Positions 18,806 to 26,976 of a stretch of 57,057 bases of DNA are shown piece after piece. Source of the stretch: an archaeon (GTDB taxonomy: Archaea > Nanobdellota > Nanobdellia > Woesearchaeales > GW2011-AR15); contig JABHHN010000072.1 in NCBI GenBank assembly GCA_018671515.1, positions 1 to 57,057 of the forward strand. Direction: 5' to 3'. Each line of letters opens with the position of its first letter. Position 1 is the stretch's first letter. A program made the translations under genes and the position numbers. The notes beneath the pieces were generated by a model. It did no database searches. It saw only the letters and a list, made by a program, of their open reading frames with translations, and was not told the origin of the DNA.

Positions 18806-18993
18806 ATATTTATTTTTATTTTATTTAAATTTCTTTTTAAGAACTTTAATTGAATTATTAGTTCAATTAATATTTTAAATGTAGACGTATTTACTAATTA
18901 TTGGGGTCTGATTTAAATGAAATACAAATTAAAAAAACAATCACCAACAATCACTTTACTATTGGCTACTAAAATAATCGAGAGGTGTTTAAT

Positions 18994-19437
18994 ATGAGAA
19001 CATGGATATTTCAAGGAAATCCAGATGATTTTCCTATTTATGAATATATAAAGGGTTGTGATGAAATTACTTGGTTAGTTAACAAGTATGAAGATAAAAT
19101 TAAGGAAGGAGATGAAGTATATATCTGGAAGGGCGCAGGTAAAGAAAAAGGATCTGCAGGAATTATTGCAAAAGGAATAATATTATGCAATCCTAAATTA
19201 ATTGAAACAGATTTAGATGGACCATATCAATGGACATATCCAAGAAAATTAAAAGAGGAATTAAGGGTTAGAATTAAATTAATTGATAAAAGATTAAATC
19301 CTGCAAATAGGGTATCAAGAGAAGAATTTGAAGGAGATTTAGATTTAATGAATCATGCCATTATCTCAGGTTACCAAGGAATTAATTTCAAATTAAAAGA
19401 TGTTCAAGTTGAAAGATTAAATGAGTTGTGGAATTGA
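18994..19437 (+). CDS. EVE (PUA-like) domain protein
   Basis: TWIFQGNP, IKEGDEVYIW, GIIAKG, QGINF; SD GAGGTG. Confidence 0.85.
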   Translation: MRTWIFQGNPDDFPIYEYIKGCDEITWLVNKYEDKIKEGDEVYIWKGAGKEKGSAGIIAKGIILCNPKLIETDLDGPYQWTYPRKLKEELRVRIKLIDKRLNPANRVSREEFEGDLDLMNHAIISGYQGINFKLKDVQVERLNELWN

Positions 19438-19449
19438 ATATAGAATGAA

Positions 19450-19470
19450 AAAAATAAACATTTAAATATA
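19450..19470 (+). promoter_or_regulatory. Archaeal promoter P1 (BRE/TATA) for the his leader
   Basis: A-rich tract plus TTTAAATA at 19461, 32 bp before ATG 19493 (leaderless geometry like the RHH genes). Confidence 0.55.
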
Positions 19471-19492
19471 ACATAGATTTCACAAACATACC

Positions 19493-19546
19493 ATGAGAGC
19501 AAACAAAGACGATAGTCGTGATTGTATTCATTGTCGGACAAACTAG
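19493..19546 (+). CDS. His-operon leader peptide uORF1 MRANKDDSRDCIHCRTN
   Basis: 17 codons, single His codon (CAT 19529) within GAT TGT ATT CAT TGT, a motif shared with uORF2. Confidence 0.6.
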   Translation: MRANKDDSRDCIHCRTN

Positions 19547-19574
19547 TCCAGATTTTAGTAGTTCTAACTCTCAA

Positions 19575-19590
19575 GATAAATTTATAAAAA
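19575..19590 (+). promoter_or_regulatory. Probable tRNA-His promoter P2
   Basis: TTTATAAA at 19581, 48 bp before the tRNA. Confidence 0.5.
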
Positions 19591-19628
19591 TTTCACAAAG
19601 TAATTGTATTTCTCAAGATCAAATATAT

Positions 19629-19721
19629 GGCTGCGGTAGTTCAATGGTAGAATCCAGGACTGTGGAAACCAAAAACGGTTTCAGAAATCCTGGGACGCGA
19701 GTTCGATTCCCGCCTGCGGCC
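19629..19721 (+). tRNA. tRNA-His(GUG) with a 21-nt intron (19666-19686) at position 37/38
   Basis: Acceptor GCTGCGG/CTGCGGC, encoded G-1 and C73; anticodon stem CAGGA/TCCTG with GTG at 19662-19664; T-loop TTCGATT; near-canonical bulge-helix-bulge (CTG/CAG, AACC/GGTT); CCA not encoded. Confidence 0.95.
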
Positions 19722-19783
19722 CTTCTTAAAACAGAAGGCTCAAACAACATTTATTCGAGTGAAAGCGAGAATAATATACAAGC

Positions 19784-19839
19784 GCAGCGAAAAGTTTTTT
19801 CAAAAAATAATGAAAAAGCTCTACCTGCAACTCTTTTTT
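19784..19839 (+). terminator. Hairpin plus T-tracts between tRNA-His and hisG
   Basis: GCAG..AGTTTTTTCA/TGAAAAAGCT..CTGC stem followed by TTTTTT at 19834-19839. Confidence 0.45.
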
Positions 19840-19889
19840 CAAACAATAGCAATAACACCAACAAACAAACAACTGGAGGTTCTTTTAAC

Positions 19890-19943
19890 ATGGAAAGACT
19901 GGCAATAAGCAGTGATTGTATTCACTGTGGTACCAAAGAATAG
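19890..19943 (+). CDS. His-operon leader peptide uORF2 MERLAISSDCIHCGTKE, overlapping hisG out of frame
   Basis: Strong SD GGAGGT 9 nt before the ATG; single His codon CAC at 19923. Confidence 0.65.
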   Translation: MERLAISSDCIHCGTKE

Positions 19944-20487
19944 TGGATTACGTAGATATAGAGACATTGCAGTACAGAACTTTGGTCTGCAGAACAATGA
20001 AAAATTAGAAGTAAGGGGAGAAGATGTCCCTTTCTGGGTTGAATCCCTAATCAAAAAAGGAAAGAAAGCTATTGGCTTAACAGGTCAGGATCTATTTCGT
20101 GAATATACATTAGAAAACTACAATACCCAATTAAAGACTCTTAAGATTGTAGGTTGGGATGATGATAAAGCATTGTTTAGAAAACCTACATTATGTTTAT
20201 TAGGTCCAAATAAAAAAGATCTAAATACAATTCCAAGAAGCCAGACAGTATGTATTTCTAAAAAGTATAAAACATTAGCAAAAAAATATCTTAATTTGCT
20301 TGAGACTAAAGGATATACTTTTCAAAAGATATATGTAAGTGGTTCTACAGAAAGCAGTTATCAAGTAGGTATTGCAGATTTAGTTATTGATATTGTATAT
20401 TCAGGTAAATCAATTAATGAATTAGGCTTGAGCATATATGAAAAAATATTCTATTCAAATTTTGTAATAATAGGTGGTAAGCAATGA
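19912..20487 (+). CDS. hisG: ATP phosphoribosyltransferase, short divergent form; true start uncertain (GTG without SD, or entry by +1 frameshift from uORF2)
   Basis: VVPKNSGL, VRGEDVP, GLTGQDL, SGSTE, GIADLVIDIVYSGKS; first gene of the his operon. Confidence 0.88.
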   Translation: MIVFTVVPKNSGLRRYRDIAVQNFGLQNNEKLEVRGEDVPFWVESLIKKGKKAIGLTGQDLFREYTLENYNTQLKTLKIVGWDDDKALFRKPTLCLLGPNKKDLNTIPRSQTVCISKKYKTLAKKYLNLLETKGYTFQKIYVSGSTESSYQVGIADLVIDIVYSGKSINELGLSIYEKIFYSNFVIIGGKQ

Positions 20488-21776
20488 ATGTCAGAATACT
20501 AAATTATGATAAAGATAAAGAGGAAATTGAAAAGGTAAAACAAAGATCATCTATTGATCAGACACAGGTAGAAGATAAAGTAAAGGTAATCCTAAATAAT
20601 GTAAAAGAAAATGGAAATAAAGCACTAATTGATTATGCAAAATTATTTGACAAAGTAGAATTAGATGAAGAAGATTTGATTGTAACAAAAGAACAAATAA
20701 AAGAAGCATATACTAAATTAGAACCTAATAAAATTATTGCAATCAAAAAAGCATTATCAAATATCACAAGATTTGCACAACTTCAAAAACCAAAACCATT
20801 CCTAGAAGAAATTGCACCTGGTGTAAAATGCGGTACACTAATTAAACCAATTGAAAAAGTAGGATGCTACATCCCTGGTGGAAATTATCCTTTACCTTCA
20901 ACAACTTTAATGACTGTTGGACCAGCAAAAGTTGCAGGTGTAAAAGAAATAATTGTTTCAACTCCTCCTCAAAAAAACGGAGGAGCTAATCCAGCAACAA
21001 TTGTTGCAGCAGATATTGCAGGTGCAACAAAGATAGTTATTTCAGGGGGAGCACAGGCAATTGCTGCAATGGCGTATGGAACTAGAACAATACCTAAAGT
21101 AAATAAGATTGTAGGCCCAGGAAATATTTATGTAACTGCAGCAAAAAAATTATTATATGGTGAAGTAGGAATAGATATGCCTGCAGGACCAAGTGAAGTA
21201 GTAATTTTAGCATCATCTGATTCAAATCCAAAATATATCGCTTCCGATATGTTAGCACAAGCAGAACACGATGTTGTTGCATGCGGATTATTATTTACTG
21301 ATTCAATGGAATTAGCTAATAAAGTAAAACAGGAAATAATTATCCAGACAGAAAAATTAGCATCAAAAGAAATCATAAAAAAATCATTTGAGAATTATAG
21401 CTGTATTGTTTTAGTAAAAACAGTCACTGACGTAATTGATTTTTGTAATGATTTTGCACCAGAACACTTAGAAATAATTGGTTATGATGAATCAATATTA
21501 GATAAGATAACAAATGCAGGTTCAATATTTTTTGGAGAATATTCTGTTGAAGCTGCAGGAGATTATTGCTCAGGAACAAACCACGTAATCCCAACAGGTG
21601 GATTTTCAAAAGTAAGAGGAGGATTATCAGTATATGACTTTTTGAAAATGCCAACAATACAAAAATTATCAAGACAGGGATTAGAATCATTAAAAGACAC
21701 GATTACAACGCTAGCTGAAATGGAAAGTTTACCAGCACACGCAAATTCAGCAAAGATTAGATTTGAAGGTGAATAA
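20484..21776 (+). CDS. hisD: Histidinol dehydrogenase
   Basis: YIPGG, GGAQAIAAMAYG, GPGNIYV, AGPSE, QAEHD, APEHL, GTNHV. Confidence 0.98.
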   Translation: MNVRILNYDKDKEEIEKVKQRSSIDQTQVEDKVKVILNNVKENGNKALIDYAKLFDKVELDEEDLIVTKEQIKEAYTKLEPNKIIAIKKALSNITRFAQLQKPKPFLEEIAPGVKCGTLIKPIEKVGCYIPGGNYPLPSTTLMTVGPAKVAGVKEIIVSTPPQKNGGANPATIVAADIAGATKIVISGGAQAIAAMAYGTRTIPKVNKIVGPGNIYVTAAKKLLYGEVGIDMPAGPSEVVILASSDSNPKYIASDMLAQAEHDVVACGLLFTDSMELANKVKQEIIIQTEKLASKEIIKKSFENYSCIVLVKTVTDVIDFCNDFAPEHLEIIGYDESILDKITNAGSIFFGEYSVEAAGDYCSGTNHVIPTGGFSKVRGGLSVYDFLKMPTIQKLSRQGLESLKDTITTLAEMESLPAHANSAKIRFEGE

Positions 21777-21777
21777 T

Positions 21778-22824
21778 ATGCAACCAAAAGAATCAGTAAG
21801 AAATATGGCACCATATAATCCTCCTACTTCATCAAGGAGTGATTTTATTAGATTGGACTTCAATGAAAACACATCAGGATGTTCACCTAAAGTATTACAG
21901 GCATTAAGAACTATCACAGAAAAGGAATTTTGCATGTATCCAGAATATAATGAATTAAAAAATGACATTGCAAAATTAAATGATATTGATAAAAATAAAA
22001 TCATCCCTACAAACGCAGGAGATGAAGGAATAATGCTTGTGATGAATACTTTCATTGAAAAAGGAGATGAAATATTATTGCCTACTCCAACATTTGCAAT
22101 GTTCAAATTCTATGCACAATTAAATGATGCAGATATCAAAGAAGTACAATACAATGAAAACCTATTGTTTCCGATAGATAATCTACTAAATAAAATTAAT
22201 GAAAAAACAAAGATGATAATTTTAGTGAATCCAAATAATCCAACTGGAACATCAATTAAAAGAGATGATATAATCAGAGTTTTGGAAAAGGCAAAAGATT
22301 CAATTGTATTTTTGGATGAAGCATATTATGATTTCACAAAAAATACATGCATTGATCTAATTGATAAATACCAGAATTTAGTGATATTAAGATCATTTTC
22401 AAAAGCATTTGGTCTTGGTGGATTAAGACTTGGATATTTGATATCAAATAAAGAAAACATCAAGATATTTCAGAAAGTAAATTCACCTTATAGTATTTCA
22501 TTTATTGCAAATAAAGTACTAAAGGCTGCAATAGAAGATTTTGATTATGTGGATAATTATGTTTCACAAATTATGAAAAATAAAGAATTCTTATATAATG
22601 AATTTGAAAAGATGAATATCAAATATTACAAAGGGGATGCTAATTTTTTCTTAGCAGATTTTGGTGAAAGCTATAAGATAATATATGATAAACTTAAAGA
22701 AAGAGGAATACTTCTTAGAGATAGGAATAGTTATGTCAAAAATACTCTCAGGATTACTGTAGGTACAAAGAAGCAATGCGAATTATTGATAAAGGAGTTG
22801 AATGAAATATGGATGAAGAGATAG
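21778..22824 (+). CDS. hisC: Histidinol-phosphate aminotransferase
   Basis: LDFNEN, NPNNPTG, DEAY, RSFSKAFGLGGLRLGY; SD AGGTGA. Confidence 0.96.
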   Translation: MQPKESVRNMAPYNPPTSSRSDFIRLDFNENTSGCSPKVLQALRTITEKEFCMYPEYNELKNDIAKLNDIDKNKIIPTNAGDEGIMLVMNTFIEKGDEILLPTPTFAMFKFYAQLNDADIKEVQYNENLLFPIDNLLNKINEKTKMIILVNPNNPTGTSIKRDDIIRVLEKAKDSIVFLDEAYYDFTKNTCIDLIDKYQNLVILRSFSKAFGLGGLRLGYLISNKENIKIFQKVNSPYSISFIANKVLKAAIEDFDYVDNYVSQIMKNKEFLYNEFEKMNIKYYKGDANFFLADFGESYKIIYDKLKERGILLRDRNSYVKNTLRITVGTKKQCELLIKELNEIWMKR

Positions 22825-23477
22825 ATACGATTATATTTGACATGGACGGGGTTTTAGTTGATGAATCAAAATCATATAGACTTGCAATAAAAAAAACTGC
22901 TGAGTTTTTTCTTGATAATAAAAAAGAAATTTCAATGGATATGATTGAATCATACAAGGAAAGAGGTGGTCTCAATAATGATTGGGATTGCACAGAAGCT
23001 ATCCTAAAAGATAATGGTGCAGATATTGATAAAGAAAAAATCATCGAAAAATTTGATGATATATATATCAATGAAACAATTAAATCTGAAACATTGATTA
23101 TCAGACGAGAAATTCTTGAAGAGCTTTCTAAAATATATAAGTTAGGAATTGTTACAGGAAGACCAAAACGTGATGCTAATTTGGCAATATTCAATTTTAA
23201 TCTTGCTAGATATTTTAATACATATATTACAATGGAAGATGTAGAAAATCAAAAACCATCACCAGATGGAATTATAAAATGTATGAAAAGACTTGGCTCC
23301 AAAAAGGCAATATATTTTGGGGACACTATTGATGATATGAGAGCTGCAAAATCTGCAGGAATAATTGGTATTGGAGTTATGCCACTTGTTTTTTCAGGAA
23401 AATTAAAAAATTTGCTTATTGAAAATGGAGCATCAAATGTACTTGATAATATAAATGAAATTGTGGAGGTTTTATAA
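22809..23477 (+). CDS. HAD-family hydrolase, probable histidinol-phosphate phosphatase
   Basis: FDMDGVLVD, GGLNNDWD, VTGRP, KPSP, GDTIDD; sits between hisC and hisB. Confidence 0.85.
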   Translation: MDEEIDTIIFDMDGVLVDESKSYRLAIKKTAEFFLDNKKEISMDMIESYKERGGLNNDWDCTEAILKDNGADIDKEKIIEKFDDIYINETIKSETLIIRREILEELSKIYKLGIVTGRPKRDANLAIFNFNLARYFNTYITMEDVENQKPSPDGIIKCMKRLGSKKAIYFGDTIDDMRAAKSAGIIGIGVMPLVFSGKLKNLLIENGASNVLDNINEIVEVL

Positions 23478-24061
23478 TGAGAAAATCAAGAATTACAAGA
23501 AAGACAAATGAGACTGATATAAAAATAAAATTAGATGTTGATGGAACAGGGAAATCAAAGATAAATACACCAATTGGATTTTTCAATCACATGTTAGAGG
23601 CATTTTCAAAACATGGACTTTTTGATCTCGAGATAGATGTCAAAGGAGACATAGAAGTTGATCAGCACCACACAGTTGAAGATATAGGAATTGCACTAGG
23701 TAATGCATTTTTAGATGCATTAGATGACAAAAAAGGGATAAACAGATCAGGTTATTTTGTATATCCAATGGATGAAGCACTAGCAGTTGTTGCAATTGAT
23801 TTATCAGGAAGACCTTATCTACAATATGATGCAGAATTCAAGAGAAGATATTGTGGTGAGCTTGATACTGATTTACTTCATGATTTTTTTGAAGCTTTTG
23901 CAGTAAATCTAAAGGCAAATGTTGTTGTAAGAATGCCTTATGGAAGAAGTGACCACCACAAGATTGAAGCAATCTTTAAAGCATTTGCAAAAGCAATGAA
24001 GATGGCATGTGAAAAAGATGATAGAATAAAAGGCGTTTTGAGTACGAAGGGCGTTATATAA
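23477..24061 (+). CDS. hisB: Imidazoleglycerol-phosphate dehydratase
   Basis: FFNHML, DQHHTVED, PMDEA, DHHKIEAIFKA, STKG. Confidence 0.98.
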   Translation: MRKSRITRKTNETDIKIKLDVDGTGKSKINTPIGFFNHMLEAFSKHGLFDLEIDVKGDIEVDQHHTVEDIGIALGNAFLDALDDKKGINRSGYFVYPMDEALAVVAIDLSGRPYLQYDAEFKRRYCGELDTDLLHDFFEAFAVNLKANVVVRMPYGRSDHHKIEAIFKAFAKAMKMACEKDDRIKGVLSTKGVI

Positions 24062-24124
24062 GTTTCAATGATGAAATATTTATTTCTTTTTTTTTGAAAT
24101 AAATATTCAGGCTTCGCCTTCATT

Positions 24125-24151
24125 ATAGCAAGCCTTTGGCTTGCAATTGTG
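24125..24151 (+). repeat. REP-like palindrome, family TAGCAAG (copy 1)
   Basis: ATAGCAAGCC-TTT-GGCTTGCAATTGTG; related copies at 34801, 47922, 50240. Confidence 0.85.
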
Positions 24152-24310
24152 GATAGTGAAGTGTTAAAGTTAGAATAACTTTGACAATACGAATGAAATG
24201 AGTTATCTATACACTATGATGAAGAAAGAAGATGAAGTATTCTTTCCTGACATGTTGAAAAAAAGAAAATTCAAAATTAACAAAAAAAAAATTAAATGGA
24301 GATATAAAAA

Positions 24311-24916
24311 ATGAGAATTGCAATCATCGATTATGGTGGGGGGAATATTGGAAGTGTGAAGAATGCACTAGATTATTTAGGAGTAGATTCAATAATTACA
24401 GACAATCCTGATGAAATAATAAATGCAGATAAGATGATACTTCCAGGTCAAGGTAGATTTGGAGATGTGATGAATAAATTAAATGAAAAAAACCTGATCA
24501 AAACAATACTTGAAGAAATAAATAATAAAAAACCATATTTAGGAATATGCATAGGATTGCAGATACTTTTTGAATCAGGTGAAGAAGATCCAGAAATAAA
24601 AGGATTGAATCTGATAAAAGGAACTGTTCCTAAATTCAAGATTGAACAAAAAGTACCACAAATAGGATGGAATTCAATTACTAAAATGAAGTATTCAAAA
24701 TTACTAAATGGAATTAATAATTTAGATTTTTTCTATTTCGTACACTCATATTATTGCATAACAGATGATAAAGAATCAATATTAACCAAAACAGATTATG
24801 GAATTAATTTTGTTAGTGCAATAGAAAAAGATAATATTTATGCAACACAGTTCCACCCAGAAAAATCAGGAAAATCAGGATTAAAATTATTAAAAAACTT
24901 TTGTGAGGTAATCTAA
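24311..24916 (+). CDS. hisH: Imidazole glycerol phosphate synthase, glutaminase subunit
   Basis: [32 protein letters not shown]. Confidence 0.98.
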
Positions 24917-24917
24917 A

Positions 24918-25673
24918 ATGCTTACAAAAAGAATTATACCGTGTCTTGATGTAAAAAATGGACGTGTAGTAAAAGGAACGAAATTCAAGAATTTAGTAGA
25001 CATAGGTGATCCTGTAGAATTAGCTATAAAATATTATAATGAAGGTGCAGATGAATTATGTTTTTTAGATATTACTGCATCCATTGAAAAAAGAAAAACA
25101 ATGATTGAAATGGTAAAAAAAGTTGCAGATAATATTTTTATACCTTTCACAGTAGGTGGTGGAATAAAAACCATTGAAGATATAAGACTGCTCTTAAAAA
25201 ACGGAGCAGATAAAGTTACTTTTTGTACAGAGGCAATAACAAATCCAGATATAATAAAAGAGGCATCGGATAAATTTGGTTCACAATGTATTGTAATTTC
25301 AGTTGATGTAAAAAGAAATGGAAAAGGATGGGAACCATATATTTATGGTGGAAAAAAAGAGACTGGATTGGATGCATTAGAATTTGCAAAAAAATGTGAA
25401 AAATTGGGTGCAGGTGAAATATTATTGAACTCTTTAGACACAGATGGGATGAAACAAGGATATGATTTAGAAATAACAAAACAAATTTCAGAATCATTGA
25501 ACATTCCAGTAATAGCTAGTAGCGGTGCAGGAACACTAGAACAGATATATGAAGCATTCACAAAAGGAAAAGCTGACGCTGCTTTAGCGGCGTCAATATT
25601 TCACTATAACACTTATTCAATAAAACAAGTAAAAGATTATTTAAAAAATAAAGGAGTTGATGTAAGATTATAA
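24918..25673 (+). CDS. hisF: Imidazole glycerol phosphate synthase, cyclase subunit
   Basis: [36 protein letters not shown]. Confidence 0.98.
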
Positions 25674-25725
25674 CGGAAAAAATTGGAAAATTTTTTAGTT
25701 TTCAGAGTGGAGCAGAGGCGGAACG

Positions 25726-26976
25726 ATGATAATCCCAAGCATAGATATACTAAACGGACGAGCTGTAAAGCTTGTAAAAGGAGATCCAAATAATAAGAAA
25801 TTTGAGACAAATGCATTAGAGCTAGCTCAAAGTTTTTCAATATTTCCAGAAATAAATCTCATAGATTTAGATGCGGCATTAGGCACAGGAAATAATATTG
25901 AACTAATAAGAAAAATATCAAAAATATGCACATGCAATGTTGGCGGAGGAATAAGAACAACAAAAATAGCATATGATTTACTAAAGGCAGGTGCAAATAA
26001 AATTATTATTGGAACAAAGGCTGATGTTGAATTCCTAAAACAATTACCTAAAGAAAAAATCATAATTGCAATTGATTCACGGAAAGGAAAAATTGTTGAC
26101 AAAGGCTGGACAAATGAAATAGATGAAACAACCATTGATAGAGCAAATAGATTAAAAAATTATTGCAATTCCTTCCTTTACACATATGTCGACAAAGAAG
26201 GAACACTAGAAGATATTGATGAAAATACAGTAAATGAATTAAAAAAAATCACAAAAAACAAAATTCAATATGCTGGAGGAATTTCTAGCAAAGACCAAAT
26301 TATAAAATTAGAATCACTTGGAGTTGACGCAGTTGTAGGTATGGCTTATTATGAAAATAAAATAGATATATATGAAACATTTGTTGATCTACTAAACTTC
26401 AAAAAAAGCATGGGACTAATCCCTACAATTGTAAAAAACACAAATGGACAAATACTGATGCTTGCATATAGCAATAGAGAATCTGTAATAAAATCAATAA
26501 AGGAAAGAAAAGGAATCTATTTTTCAAGAAGTAGACAAGAACTCTGGGAAAAAGGACTCACTTCTGGAAATACACAGGAACTAAAAAATATAAAAGTAGA
26601 TTGTGATAGAGATACATTGATTTACAAAGTATTGCAAAAAAATGTTGCATGCCACACAGGAGCATATACTTGCTTCGAAGATGAAGATTTCAACATGGAA
26701 TCATTATATGAAATTATTGAATCAAAAATAAGTGAAAGTAATTCATTTACAGATAAAGTATATAATGATGAGACGATGTTAAAAGAAAAGATAATTGAAG
26801 AGGCAGATGAAGTAGTTAATTTTAAGAATAAAGATAACTTAACCTGGGAAATAGCAGATTTATTATATTTTATATCAATACTTATGAAAAAGAATGGTAT
26901 TGATTACAAAGATATAAATAATGAATTAAAAATCAGGAATCTGATGAAAAAAACAATCAATAATACAAAACTTTGA
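25726..26976 (+). CDS. hisA: HisA-HisI-HisE trifunctional fusion
   Basis: IIPSIDI, IDLDAA, VGGGIR (HisA); FSRSRQELWEKGLTSGN, DCDRD, ACHTG (HisI); KIIEEADE, WEIADLLY (HisE). Confidence 0.92.
   Translation: MIIPSIDILNGRAVKLVKGDPNNKKFETNALELAQSFSIFPEINLIDLDAALGTGNNIELIRKISKICTCNVGGGIRTTKIAYDLLKAGANKIIIGTKADVEFLKQLPKEKIIIAIDSRKGKIVDKGWTNEIDETTIDRANRLKNYCNSFLYTYVDKEGTLEDIDENTVNELKKITKNKIQYAGGISSKDQIIKLESLGVDAVVGMAYYENKIDIYETFVDLLNFKKSMGLIPTIVKNTNGQILMLAYSNRESVIKSIKERKGIYFSRSRQELWEKGLTSGNTQELKNIKVDCDRDTLIYKVLQKNVACHTGAYTCFEDEDFNMESLYEIIESKISESNSFTDKVYNDETMLKEKIIEEADEVVNFKNKDNLTWEIADLLYFISILMKKNGIDYKDINNELKIRNLMKKTINNTKL

Follow-up and report, generated by a model that had tools for sequence, protein, structure and literature searches.

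We describe an open reading frame (ORF) that runs through a gene for tRNA-His in an archaeal DNA stretch of 57,057 nucleotides (nt), contig JABHHN010000072.1, to which we refer in its full length as the window; the 1.88-Mb genome that contains it carries the label G000. The frame links a short upstream ORF (uORF1) to a second one (uORF2) that overlaps the start of hisG, and it is free of stop codons and, as far as uORF2, of histidine codons. This stop-free and His-free passage through the tRNA gene is real, conserved and not a product of chance. We consider it probable that the frame is the bridging ORF of a two-stage leader of the histidine biosynthesis (his) operon, where a +1 ribosomal frameshift gated by histidine would occur at each of two copies of a short sequence cassette.

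An open frame through the tRNA-His gene

The arrangement of the locus is summarized in Table 1. A 25-nt direct repeat at 19518 and 19912, with a spacing of 394 (1 modulo 3), marks both short ORFs, each of which has a single His codon, located inside the cassette, and reaches its stop codon five (uORF1) or six (uORF2) codons later. The program-made list of ORFs contains the frame between them as a GTG-started ORF of 141 amino acids on the forward strand, 19518..19943, and counted from stop to stop it is open from 19497 over 148 codons. On its way it passes a TATA-like box (P2), the tRNA-His gene and two runs of six thymines (T6) before it enters uORF2, which it joins in frame. No His codon occurs before 19922, and the sole histidine of the 141-residue frame sits in the uORF2 part. 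The other two frames of 19527-19889 contain 2 and 15 stops and 1 and 3 His codons, and no Pfam family matched the product of the bridging frame.

The probability of such a frame arising by chance was assessed for the window alone with 20,000 dinucleotide-preserving shuffles of both spacers, the tRNA being kept fixed, which yielded P = 0.0028 for the absence of stops, P = 0.037 for the absence of His codons and P = 0.00025 for both together. An earlier note on this DNA, made by a model that saw only the sequence letters and a list of ORFs, had pointed out that the 124 codons of 19518-19889 contain neither a stop nor a CAY codon, as the translation of the ORF confirms, and had estimated a chance of the order of 1e-4. 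That estimate is about right for a frame that is both stop-free and His-free, but it understates the chance of a frame that merely lacks stops, since this strand contains little T (27%). The frame that it noted is real, whereas the likely entry is a +1 slip from uORF1 at the cassette 19520-31 and not the GTG at 19518. Its interpretation is thus partly borne out; what it missed is that the frame appears to bridge two His-gated shift sites, the same cassette being present again at 19914-25. The segment 19440-20420 is matched without insertions or deletions by DNA contigs from three other public runs, so the frames are not an assembly artefact.

Table 1. Coordinates of the elements of the leader and of the genes discussed in the text
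Feature	Coordinates	Strand	Remarks
TATA-like box P1	19461..19468	+	25-32 nt 5' of the uORF1 ATG, no Shine-Dalgarno sequence between; putative promoter
uORF1	19493..19546	+	17 codons, MRANKDDSRDCIHCRTN, then stop; proposed sensor mini-ORF holding cassette 1
Cassette 1 5' hairpin	19509..19519	+	4-bp stem, 3-nt loop; 3' arm ends 10 nt before the His codon
Cassette 1	19520..19531	+	GAT TGT ATT CAT; proposed P-site ATT 19526-28, A-site His codon CAT 19529-31
Bridging frame	19527..19943	+	+1 frame of uORF1, proposed entry at TTC 19527; ends with TAG 19941-43
P2 region	19581..19599	+	TATA-like box 19581-88 plus 10-mer ATTTCACAAA at 19590-99; the same 10-mer follows P1; putative promoter
tRNA-His (GTG)	19629..19721	+	encoded G-1; 21-nt intron 19666-19686 after position 37; from Rfam and alignment
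Two T6 runs	19795-19800 and 19834-19839	+	part of the bridging frame; may act as oligo-T terminators of the archaeal type
Shine-Dalgarno sequence GGAGGT	19875..19880	+	9 nt before the uORF2 ATG, 31 nt before GTG 19912
uORF2	19890..19943	+	17 codons, MERLAISSDCIHCGTKE, then stop; overlaps the hisG start, hisG being its +1 frame
Cassette 2 5' hairpin	19898..19913	+	4-bp stem, 8-nt loop
Cassette 2	19914..19925	+	GAT TGT ATT CAC; proposed P-site ATT 19920-22, His codon CAC 19923-25
hisG	19912..20487	+	short-form ATP phosphoribosyltransferase; PF01634, 70.6 bits
hisD, hisC, HAD phosphatase, hisB (IGPD), hisH, His_biosynth barrel, His_biosynth-PRA-CH-PRA-PH fusion	20484..26976	+	
proB region	G000:C44:9025-9860 (locus L085 626-1461)		17-codon uORF led by a Shine-Dalgarno sequence, MKTEKLGGCIPCEESTK, then stop; proB in its +1 frame

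Conservation of the leader among close relatives

The family to which the window belongs is represented by 20 species genomes, seven of which, that of the window included, have hisG; the six relatives' hisG genes are 51-67% identical to the window's. All seven loci carry a tRNA-His gene directly upstream of hisG and an A/T-rich TATA-like box about 27-35 nt upstream of the uORF1 ATG. Each of the six relatives also possesses a uORF2 that overlaps the hisG start in the -1 frame and whose ATG is preceded by a conserved Shine-Dalgarno (SD) sequence, as well as an upstream mini-ORF, or two of them, in which the cassette recurs (motif ..[GD]-C-[IRL]-H..). In all seven loci, the +1 frame that follows the final upstream cassette passes through the tRNA without a stop; in five it joins the uORF2/hisG-proximal cassette in frame, and in two it ends with a TAG abutting or overlapping the uORF2 ATG. 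Two relatives (L003 and L007) have three successive cassettes; the middle one falls within the +1 frame of the first and has no separate ATG.

The eight bridging segments of the family (706 codons) contain no His codon, compared with 12 and 16 in the other two frames, which also have 34 and 72 stops. The spacers differ several-fold in length (about 30 to 168 nt for the downstream one), and no similarity was detectable between the peptides encoded by the spacers of the window and of L004. The earlier note had suggested checking whether relatives keep the frame open while the amino-acid sequence drifts, which is what the seven loci and their spacer peptides display, and it had argued that the act of translation matters. 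The persistence of the frame, the drift of the peptide, the sustained absence of histidine and the intron lengths described below all agree with that argument and support the view that selection acts on translation itself rather than on its product.

The tRNA-His gene and its introns

The tRNA gene was recognized by a match to Rfam RF00005 at 19630-19721 that scores 46.7 bits against a cut-off of 29 and has 24 letters in place of the model's 3, and alignment to an intron-less relative places a 21-nt insert after position 37. The G-1 at 19629 pairs within an 8-bp acceptor stem, and the fold has z = -2.75. With its cloverleaf, GTG anticodon, encoded G-1 and intron after position 37, it is an archaeal intron-containing tRNA-His gene.

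A 21-nt intron leaves the frame open whether or not it is spliced out, as the earlier note had stated, and the same is true of the family as a whole, where the intron lengths (21; 15; 15; 27 and 33; 84 and 45; 33 and 30) are multiples of three in nine of nine cases. Either the spliced forms are translated as well, or only intron gains and losses that preserve the frame survive; under both readings the frame would be under selection.

Such genes are easily overlooked. ARAGORN in its default mode found no tRNA in the whole 57-kb window, and with its intron option it found 34 tRNAs in the whole genome, none of them called His. The genome-wide Rfam search lists 31 tRNAs, many of them 90-146 nt long. 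Rfam detects tRNA-His in three of the six relatives, and the three genes that it misses carry two introns. In the relatives, tRNA-His was located with a regular expression for the 5' half combined with acceptor pairing, a search that misses some tRNAs (for example, in L024) and one of whose matches is the hisG cassette itself. Annotation of this lineage will underrepresent tRNA genes rich in introns.

A search with the tRNA of the window found, in three genomes (G011, G015 and G005), only the tRNA-His linked to hisG, and the supply of tRNA-His in these cells may come from the hisG leader itself. The window's own genome has a second copy (contig C117:13727-13980) with identical exons and two intron differences, preceded by a TATA-like box that resembles P2. 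About 140 nt downstream of this second copy, a purine-rich stretch is followed by a repeat of the last ~20 nt of the tRNA. The 140 nt look like a small insertion at the 3' end of the tRNA, possibly the remnant of an integrated element, because contigs from other runs join the tRNA directly to the sequence beyond the repeat. Purine-rich stretches with CGAGTGA-like words lie 3' of both tRNA-His copies (19740-19790 in the window and G000:C117:13840-13950), and the one in the window falls inside the bridging frame.

The cassette and its hairpin

We collected 65 distinct cassette sites, 36 at hisG and 29 upstream, with the common core G-R-T Y-G-Y N-T-T C-A-Y, that is, GRU-YGY-NUU followed by one His codon, where the CAY is in part a consequence of the search design. 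The codon in the proposed P site is ATT in 35 sites, CTT in 19, TTT in 4, GTT in 3, CTC in 1 and CGC or CGG in 3. In 61 of the 65 sites NTT is followed by C, so UUC is available for re-pairing after a slip of one base forward. Where a Phe codon of the hisG frame supplies the C of CAY, this codon is TTC in 40 loci and TTT in one, out of the 61 hisG loci that were compared (see below), and the remainder of hisG uses TTT 325 times and TTC 212 times. The number of His codons in the short ORFs is one in the window and two in L012, L017, L023 and L033, and never a long run.

Several observations bear on how ribosomes enter the hisG frame. In the window this frame is closed by TAA at 19906-08, two codons before the repeat, and GTG 19912 is the only canonical start candidate of hisG ahead of the conserved VPKN. 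Six other loci (L011, L013, L034, L057, L061 and L063) have no ATG, GTG or TTG at all between the in-frame stop of hisG and VPKN, and in L057 and L023 a TAG stands directly 5' of the shifted TTC. The middle cassettes of L063 and L066 lack a frame-0 ATG and are reachable only via the +1 frame of the previous cassette. The letters VIVF look like a signal rather than a part of the enzyme, because HisG proteins with an ordinary start (for example, MLVLPKN) begin at about the place where the shift would join the frame.

A small hairpin precedes the cassette. At 47 of the 65 sites, a stem with 4 bp or more ends 10-12 nt 5' of the His codon, compared with 15.2 +/- 3.5 (maximum 26) in 300 shuffles and 2-6 at anchors placed further upstream. 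A covariance model (R1) seeded with 13 sites of one shared geometry produced 65 matches in 60 loci; every match is on the same strand as hisG, and none lies beyond the start of that gene. In the resulting alignment (A4), which was fitted to the model and in which 13 of the 65 rows are seeds, a bias towards the hairpin, 80.8% of the cells are paired, a level reached by 0 of 500 shuffles (55.0 +/- 1.9% after shuffling), 90 cells have double changes compared with 33, and double changes occur at all five pairs; the covariation score is 0.656 as opposed to 0.242 for shuffled and 0.03-0.21 for slid partners. RNAalifold found no structure in an ungapped alignment of 24 of the 29 upstream sites because the loop lengths differ. 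Upstream hairpins that refold have been described as stimulating +1 shifts at slow A-site codons in both 70S and 80S systems, and those just upstream of the site of the shift as mimicking the internal SD duplex of prfB (PMC6321510).

Cassette 2 can also form an alternative 6-bp hairpin (CAGTGA / TCACTG) at 19911-19928, which includes the His codon. A mini-helix TGR:TCA across the boundary of the P and A sites was considered as a component of the general cassette and dropped, as the cassettes with a Pro codon described below do not keep the pairing.

Other archaeal hisG loci

A scan of one genome per species with alignment of HisG resulted in 60 archaeal loci, six of them from the family, or 61 with the window. 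The 60 loci are mostly from Woesearchaeota and Nanoarchaeota, in addition to Iainarchaeum, Aenigmatarchaeota and Pacearchaeota metagenome-assembled genomes; distant bacterial HisG-like loci (L071-L083) were left out of the analysis. A tRNA-His gene lies at most 450 nt upstream of hisG in 32 of the 61 loci, and in 26 of these 32 it is located inside an open frame, which has at least 50 codons in 25. A cassette that satisfies the strict regular expression stands at the 5' end of the frame, in a short ATG-led ORF, in 18 of the 25, and 20 frames either end at the proximal site, in frame with it, or stop no more than 12 nt from the ATG of uORF2 or hisG. Where hisG has an ordinary ATG (for example, in L014, L023 and L033), the frame starts at a cassette, crosses the tRNA and ends in a stop codon that overlaps this ATG (ATGA-type).

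Codon statistics were obtained from 31 bridging segments of 29 loci, comprising 2093 codons with zero stops by construction. These segments contain 8 His codons, compared with 41 and 45 in the other two frames and with 48.4 +/- 6.3 (minimum 32) in 200 shuffles; stops number 113 and 205 in the other frames. A test less dependent on the choice of ORFs considered the 57 sites that match the regular expression and have an in-frame ATG upstream. Open runs of at least 40 codons follow the site in the +1 frame in 27 of the 57, in frame 0 in 3 and in frame +2 in 5, and the median frame-0 run after the His codon is 3 codons.

Two groups of loci combine the elements in other ways. In the 'VPNN' HisG sister clade the upstream cascade ends before the tRNA. 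In L016, L021, L024 and L027, which belong to this clade, the +1 frame of a first cassette, about 200-350 nt upstream of hisG, reaches a second-stage site where two or three His codons directly follow one another (peptides ending in ..SIHHHR or ..SMHHCY before the stop), and the next frame stops before tRNA-His. Judged by their sequences, the 'VPNN' loci appear to be a different wiring of the same parts, with the tRNA left untranslated. In the Iainarchaeum-like loci L044, L046, L047, L049 and L067, the cassette next to hisG lacks an ATG in frame 0, and ribosomes could reach it only by way of the +1 frame of a mini-ORF further upstream (MNPTFFP...). The hisG frame of these loci has a conserved TTG, and hisG would require either two slips or a start at this TTG.

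Genome specificity and a proline version at proB

The strict regular expression has 29 matches in the 1.88-Mb genome, and the combination of a uORF, a short frame 0 and a long +1 frame is found only at the two sites of this locus. Among the 11 matches of R1 in the whole genome (E up to 10), cassette 2 ranks first with 23.9 bits and cassette 1 fourth. The model also matches G000:C44:9044-9073 at 17 bits, ahead of proB: the uORF found here contains GGT GGT TGT ATT and then has the Pro codon CCT where the hisG cassette has His. The proB gene, for glutamate 5-kinase, was identified with TIGR01027 (219.6 bits, cut-off 186), and proA and proC follow it. A loose scan of the genome that accepted any A-site codon returned 43 matches; an SD sequence, a short upstream +1 frame and a long +1 ORF occur together at just three of them, the two His sites and the one at proB.

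For comparison we used 31 proB loci of the order, leaving out two loci from unpublished genomes. The Pro-codon cassette is present in three of the 31, which belong to three families (L085, L087 and L093), and in these three the proB frame has no ATG ahead of the conserved KRIxxKxG motif. Among the other 28 loci, the script found such an ATG in 24 and none in L100, and its anchor failed in L096, L098 and L099, two of which have a visible in-frame Met. The sensed codon would thus match the pathway in two operons, which supports codon-specific sensing, and the exchange of His for Pro at proB is not predicted by a His-specific binding site.

Proposed mechanism

The conserved anatomy of the leader, the relations among its frames, the codon statistics, the covariation of the hairpin and the Pro-codon twin at proB are features of the sequences themselves. 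From them we infer a slip of the ribosome, its dependence on histidine, co-transcription of the leader with hisG, and an effect on tRNA processing and on termination. Transcription from the TATA-like box at 19461 would produce an RNA beginning at or near the uORF1 ATG, and the uORF1 transcript is probably leaderless or nearly so. With ample histidyl-tRNA-His, a ribosome would decode the single His codon of uORF1 and terminate five codons on. When charged tRNA-His is scarce, the A site would remain empty at CAU, and the peptidyl-tRNA on AUU could slip one base forward onto UUC, perhaps helped by the hairpin re-forming behind the ribosome. Translation would then proceed in the +1 frame, free of stops and His codons, across tRNA-His, spliced or not, and into uORF2. 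Ribosomes that arrive through the bridging frame, as well as those that initiate at the SD-led ATG of uORF2, would meet the second cassette and could reach the hisG frame only by the same slip, which would place TTC 19921-23 in the P site and make ACT 19924-26 the next codon; for ribosomes initiating at uORF2 this would be the only His test.

Translation through the tRNA probably serves to deliver ribosomes to hisG. It probably also keeps the pre-tRNA unfolded, so that the RNA would escape cutting by the tRNA-processing enzymes, which is our preferred guess, and it may prevent the release of RNA polymerase at the T-rich tract after the tRNA and at the T6 runs. The suggestion of the earlier note that translation competes with folding and processing of the tRNA would be compatible with this scheme. 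Termination of transcription at oligo-T runs occurs in archaea, and runs of at least five thymines (T5+) have a density of 4.14 per kb in the bridging frames as opposed to 0.78 per kb in hisG and the downstream coding sequence. A scan for promoters and terminators of bacterial type gave nothing useful, with 0 terminator-like sites and only the bare T6 runs in 19350-20050.

A more far-reaching version, which we put forward tentatively and would not call probable, is that a single RNA has two fates and that the starving ribosome chooses between them by means of a reprogrammable cassette. With histidine plentiful, the transcript would fold as pre-tRNA-His, be spliced and be cut out, and the his message would be severed or terminated; with charged tRNA-His scarce, the first +1 slip and translation through the tRNA would block its maturation and the termination, and the second slip would open hisG. 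The cassette would then be a modular amino-acid sensor that is reset by exchanging the A-site codon, as in the Pro version at proB.

Several facts do not sit easily with a histidine-gated frameshift leader. The enterobacterial leader, with its long run of His codons, is a much stronger sensor than one such codon can be. Three upstream sites have CGC or CGG as the P-site codon, which permits no re-pairing; the hairpins of the window have only 4 bp each, and the alignment from which the hairpin statistics derive is biased as noted above. Eight His codons remain in the bridging frames, all of them outside the family, and a T5+ run is present in only 15 of the 31 bridging segments. Common as it is, translation through the tRNA cannot be a requirement for the class, since in 6 of the 32 tRNA-linked loci, those of the 'VPNN' clade, the tRNA lies in no open frame. 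P2, located inside the bridging frame, is likely the tRNA's own promoter and would give tRNA transcripts without uORF1. As for expression, one 244-nt contig from an RNA library, which could stem from DNA carry-over, covers 19440-19536 alone and is silent on co-transcription; no read joins all of uORF1, the tRNA and hisG, and trans-frame peptides are not known.

Alternative explanations

The explanation that competes most directly for the same evidence dispenses with frameshifting and lets the bridging frame and hisG start at GTG, CTG or TTG codons located in the +1 frame within the cassette (19518 and 19912 in the window), the overlapping mini-ORFs with His codons modulating initiation by occlusion, coupling or re-initiation. 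Such a codon does occur 11 nt before the His codon in most sites, including 30 of the 36 proximal ones and all three Pro cassettes (GTG in each), and it is GTG at both sites of the window, where an internal start is therefore possible; the TTG conserved in the hisG frame of the Iainarchaeum-like loci points in the same direction. We nevertheless regard internal starts as unlikely. In several sites the NTG is replaced by GAG, GGG, AAG, CGG or GCG; six hisG genes have no canonical start of any kind; in L057 and L023 a TAG stands immediately before the shifted codon; and the cassettes in the middle of a chain that lack an ATG are reachable only through a +1 shift. The SD sequence of the window lies at initiation distance from the uORF2 ATG and not from the NTG. 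Moreover, the NTG would lie beneath any ribosome that stalls at the His codon, and starvation would be expected to repress hisG, which is the wrong sign. The model of the earlier note, taken literally, also needs no His gate: the ORF that begins with GTG 19518 would merely compete with the folding and processing of the pre-tRNA. It accounts for the conserved open frame, the introns in multiples of three and the drifting peptide, and it gains from the apparently single-copy tRNA-His of G011, G015 and G005 (as found with the query used). It leaves unexplained why the frame starts at a His-codon cassette in a short ATG-led ORF (18 of 25 by the strict regular expression), why it is depleted of His, and why the same cassette recurs at hisG and, with a Pro codon and no tRNA, at proB; there is also no SD sequence before 19518. 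In this literal form the model seems to us quite improbable.

The cassette could instead be the binding site of a regulator, a protein or a tRNA or other RNA acting on DNA or RNA, with the open frames as side effects. Conservation at the nucleotide level in both frames, the small covarying hairpin next to the cassette and the direct repeat are what one would expect of such a site. On the other hand, a binding site predicts neither frames of 50-146 codons that lack stops and His codons and join exactly in frame, nor introns in multiples of three, nor frame-0 stops at a median of 3 codons past the His codon, nor the switch from His to Pro at proB, and neither a T-box nor any other Rfam family apart from the tRNA was found in the window; we attach little probability to it. 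Finally, the frame might have arisen by chance in a T-poor spacer or might be a genuine small protein gene overlapping the tRNA. The window by itself, with 27% T on this strand, leaves some room for chance, given the P value of 0.0028 for the absence of stops, but the comparative data bring both possibilities close to being refuted: the frame exists in seven of seven genomes of the family and has at least 50 codons in 25 of the 32 tRNA-linked loci of the wider set, no Pfam family matches, and the spacer parts are dissimilar between relatives and variable in length. We consider this explanation extremely improbable, and the histidine-gated +1 frameshift leader is the reading with which we proceed.

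Genes surrounding the leader

The his operon is complete with hisG and the downstream genes (Table 1). The gene immediately upstream of the leader, at 18985-19437 on the forward strand, has a weak match to the EVE domain (PF01878, 20.2 bits, cut-off 23).

Comparison with known systems

In its general design the proposed leader resembles the programmed +1 frameshift of prfB, for which a CUUUGA site and an SD duplex are described (PMC6321510). As in prfB, a short ORF in frame 0 lies close to the 5' end and the P site has an NUU codon that can be re-paired; the A-site codon would be slow, a helix would form just behind the ribosome, the shift would be needed for the downstream product, and what is sensed would be tied to that product. 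The short frame-0 ORF, the A-site codon linked to the product and the re-pairable P-site codon are evident at the sites described here, and slow decoding of CAY under starvation is what we infer. The differences are that the A-site codon is a sense codon (His, or Pro at proB), which would make the site a sensor of aminoacyl-tRNA supply instead of release factor, that the 5' helix is an mRNA hairpin and, as far as this can be tested, not an SD:anti-SD duplex, that the sites are chained in twos or threes, that the bridging frame crosses a tRNA gene, and that the hosts are archaeal (DPANN). As to a possible SD-like pairing of the GGTGAT-like letters with 16S rRNA, the 16S gene of this genome is cut at model position 828, and a script search for the usual 3'-end motif found none.

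The second obvious comparison is attenuation of the enterobacterial his operon by hisL, where, as proposed here, the speed of a ribosome on the His codons of a leader mini-ORF reports the supply of histidyl-tRNA-His. The short ORFs described here have one or two His codons as opposed to the long run in hisL, no terminator or antiterminator hairpins accompany them (0 terminator-like sites in 19350-20050), and the proposed read-out is a change of frame rather than the release of a hairpin. Control of archaeal his genes by a leader peptide did not turn up in our search of the literature. Slips at hungry codons are known from other settings. The +1 shift of yeast Ty1 (CUU_AGG_C) relies on a constitutively rare tRNA and sets a fixed ratio, whereas the shift proposed here would be a regulatory signal; starvation-induced shifts in E. 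coli are errors, whereas here they would signal to the matching biosynthetic operon. In the passage of a 2016 review of recoding that deals with starvation-specific trans-frame products, it is stated that "no examples are known" (PMC5009743). If our interpretation is correct, this would be the first natural frameshift at a hungry sense codon to serve as a regulatory signal for the pathway of the matching amino acid, a mode of sensing amino-acid shortage that has not been described, and archaea would gain a ribosome-based amino-acid sensor.

The association of tRNA-His, or of histidine supply, with the expression of his genes also has parallels, namely the T-box of Firmicutes his genes, which responds to uncharged tRNA-His, and the co-transcription of tRNA genes with protein genes. 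The tRNA is not the trans-acting ligand of a riboswitch in our proposal; instead, the tRNA gene itself would lie inside a translated frame, and an Rfam scan of the whole window at gathering scores detected tRNA only, with no T-box or other family. To our knowledge, no conserved ORF that reads through a functional tRNA gene has been described, and in the literature searched, supplementary files not being covered, there was no report of frameshifting at hisG, of frameshift sensing by His codons or of an ORF through a tRNA gene. It would follow from the proposed mechanism that a functional tRNA gene can sit in a translated frame and that the supply of tRNA-His and the synthesis of histidine are tied together in one RNA; should the tentative view of two fates for this RNA hold, it would be the first translated tRNA gene.

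The practical consequences concern both experiment and annotation. The small size of the cassette (~30 nt) and the natural exchange of His for Pro make reporter assays feasible, and gene callers will mis-start hisG and proB and miss tRNA-His in these genomes. Taken as a whole, we rate the finding as a variant of programmed +1 frameshifting and of amino-acid sensing by leader ORFs, situated at the far end of that category.

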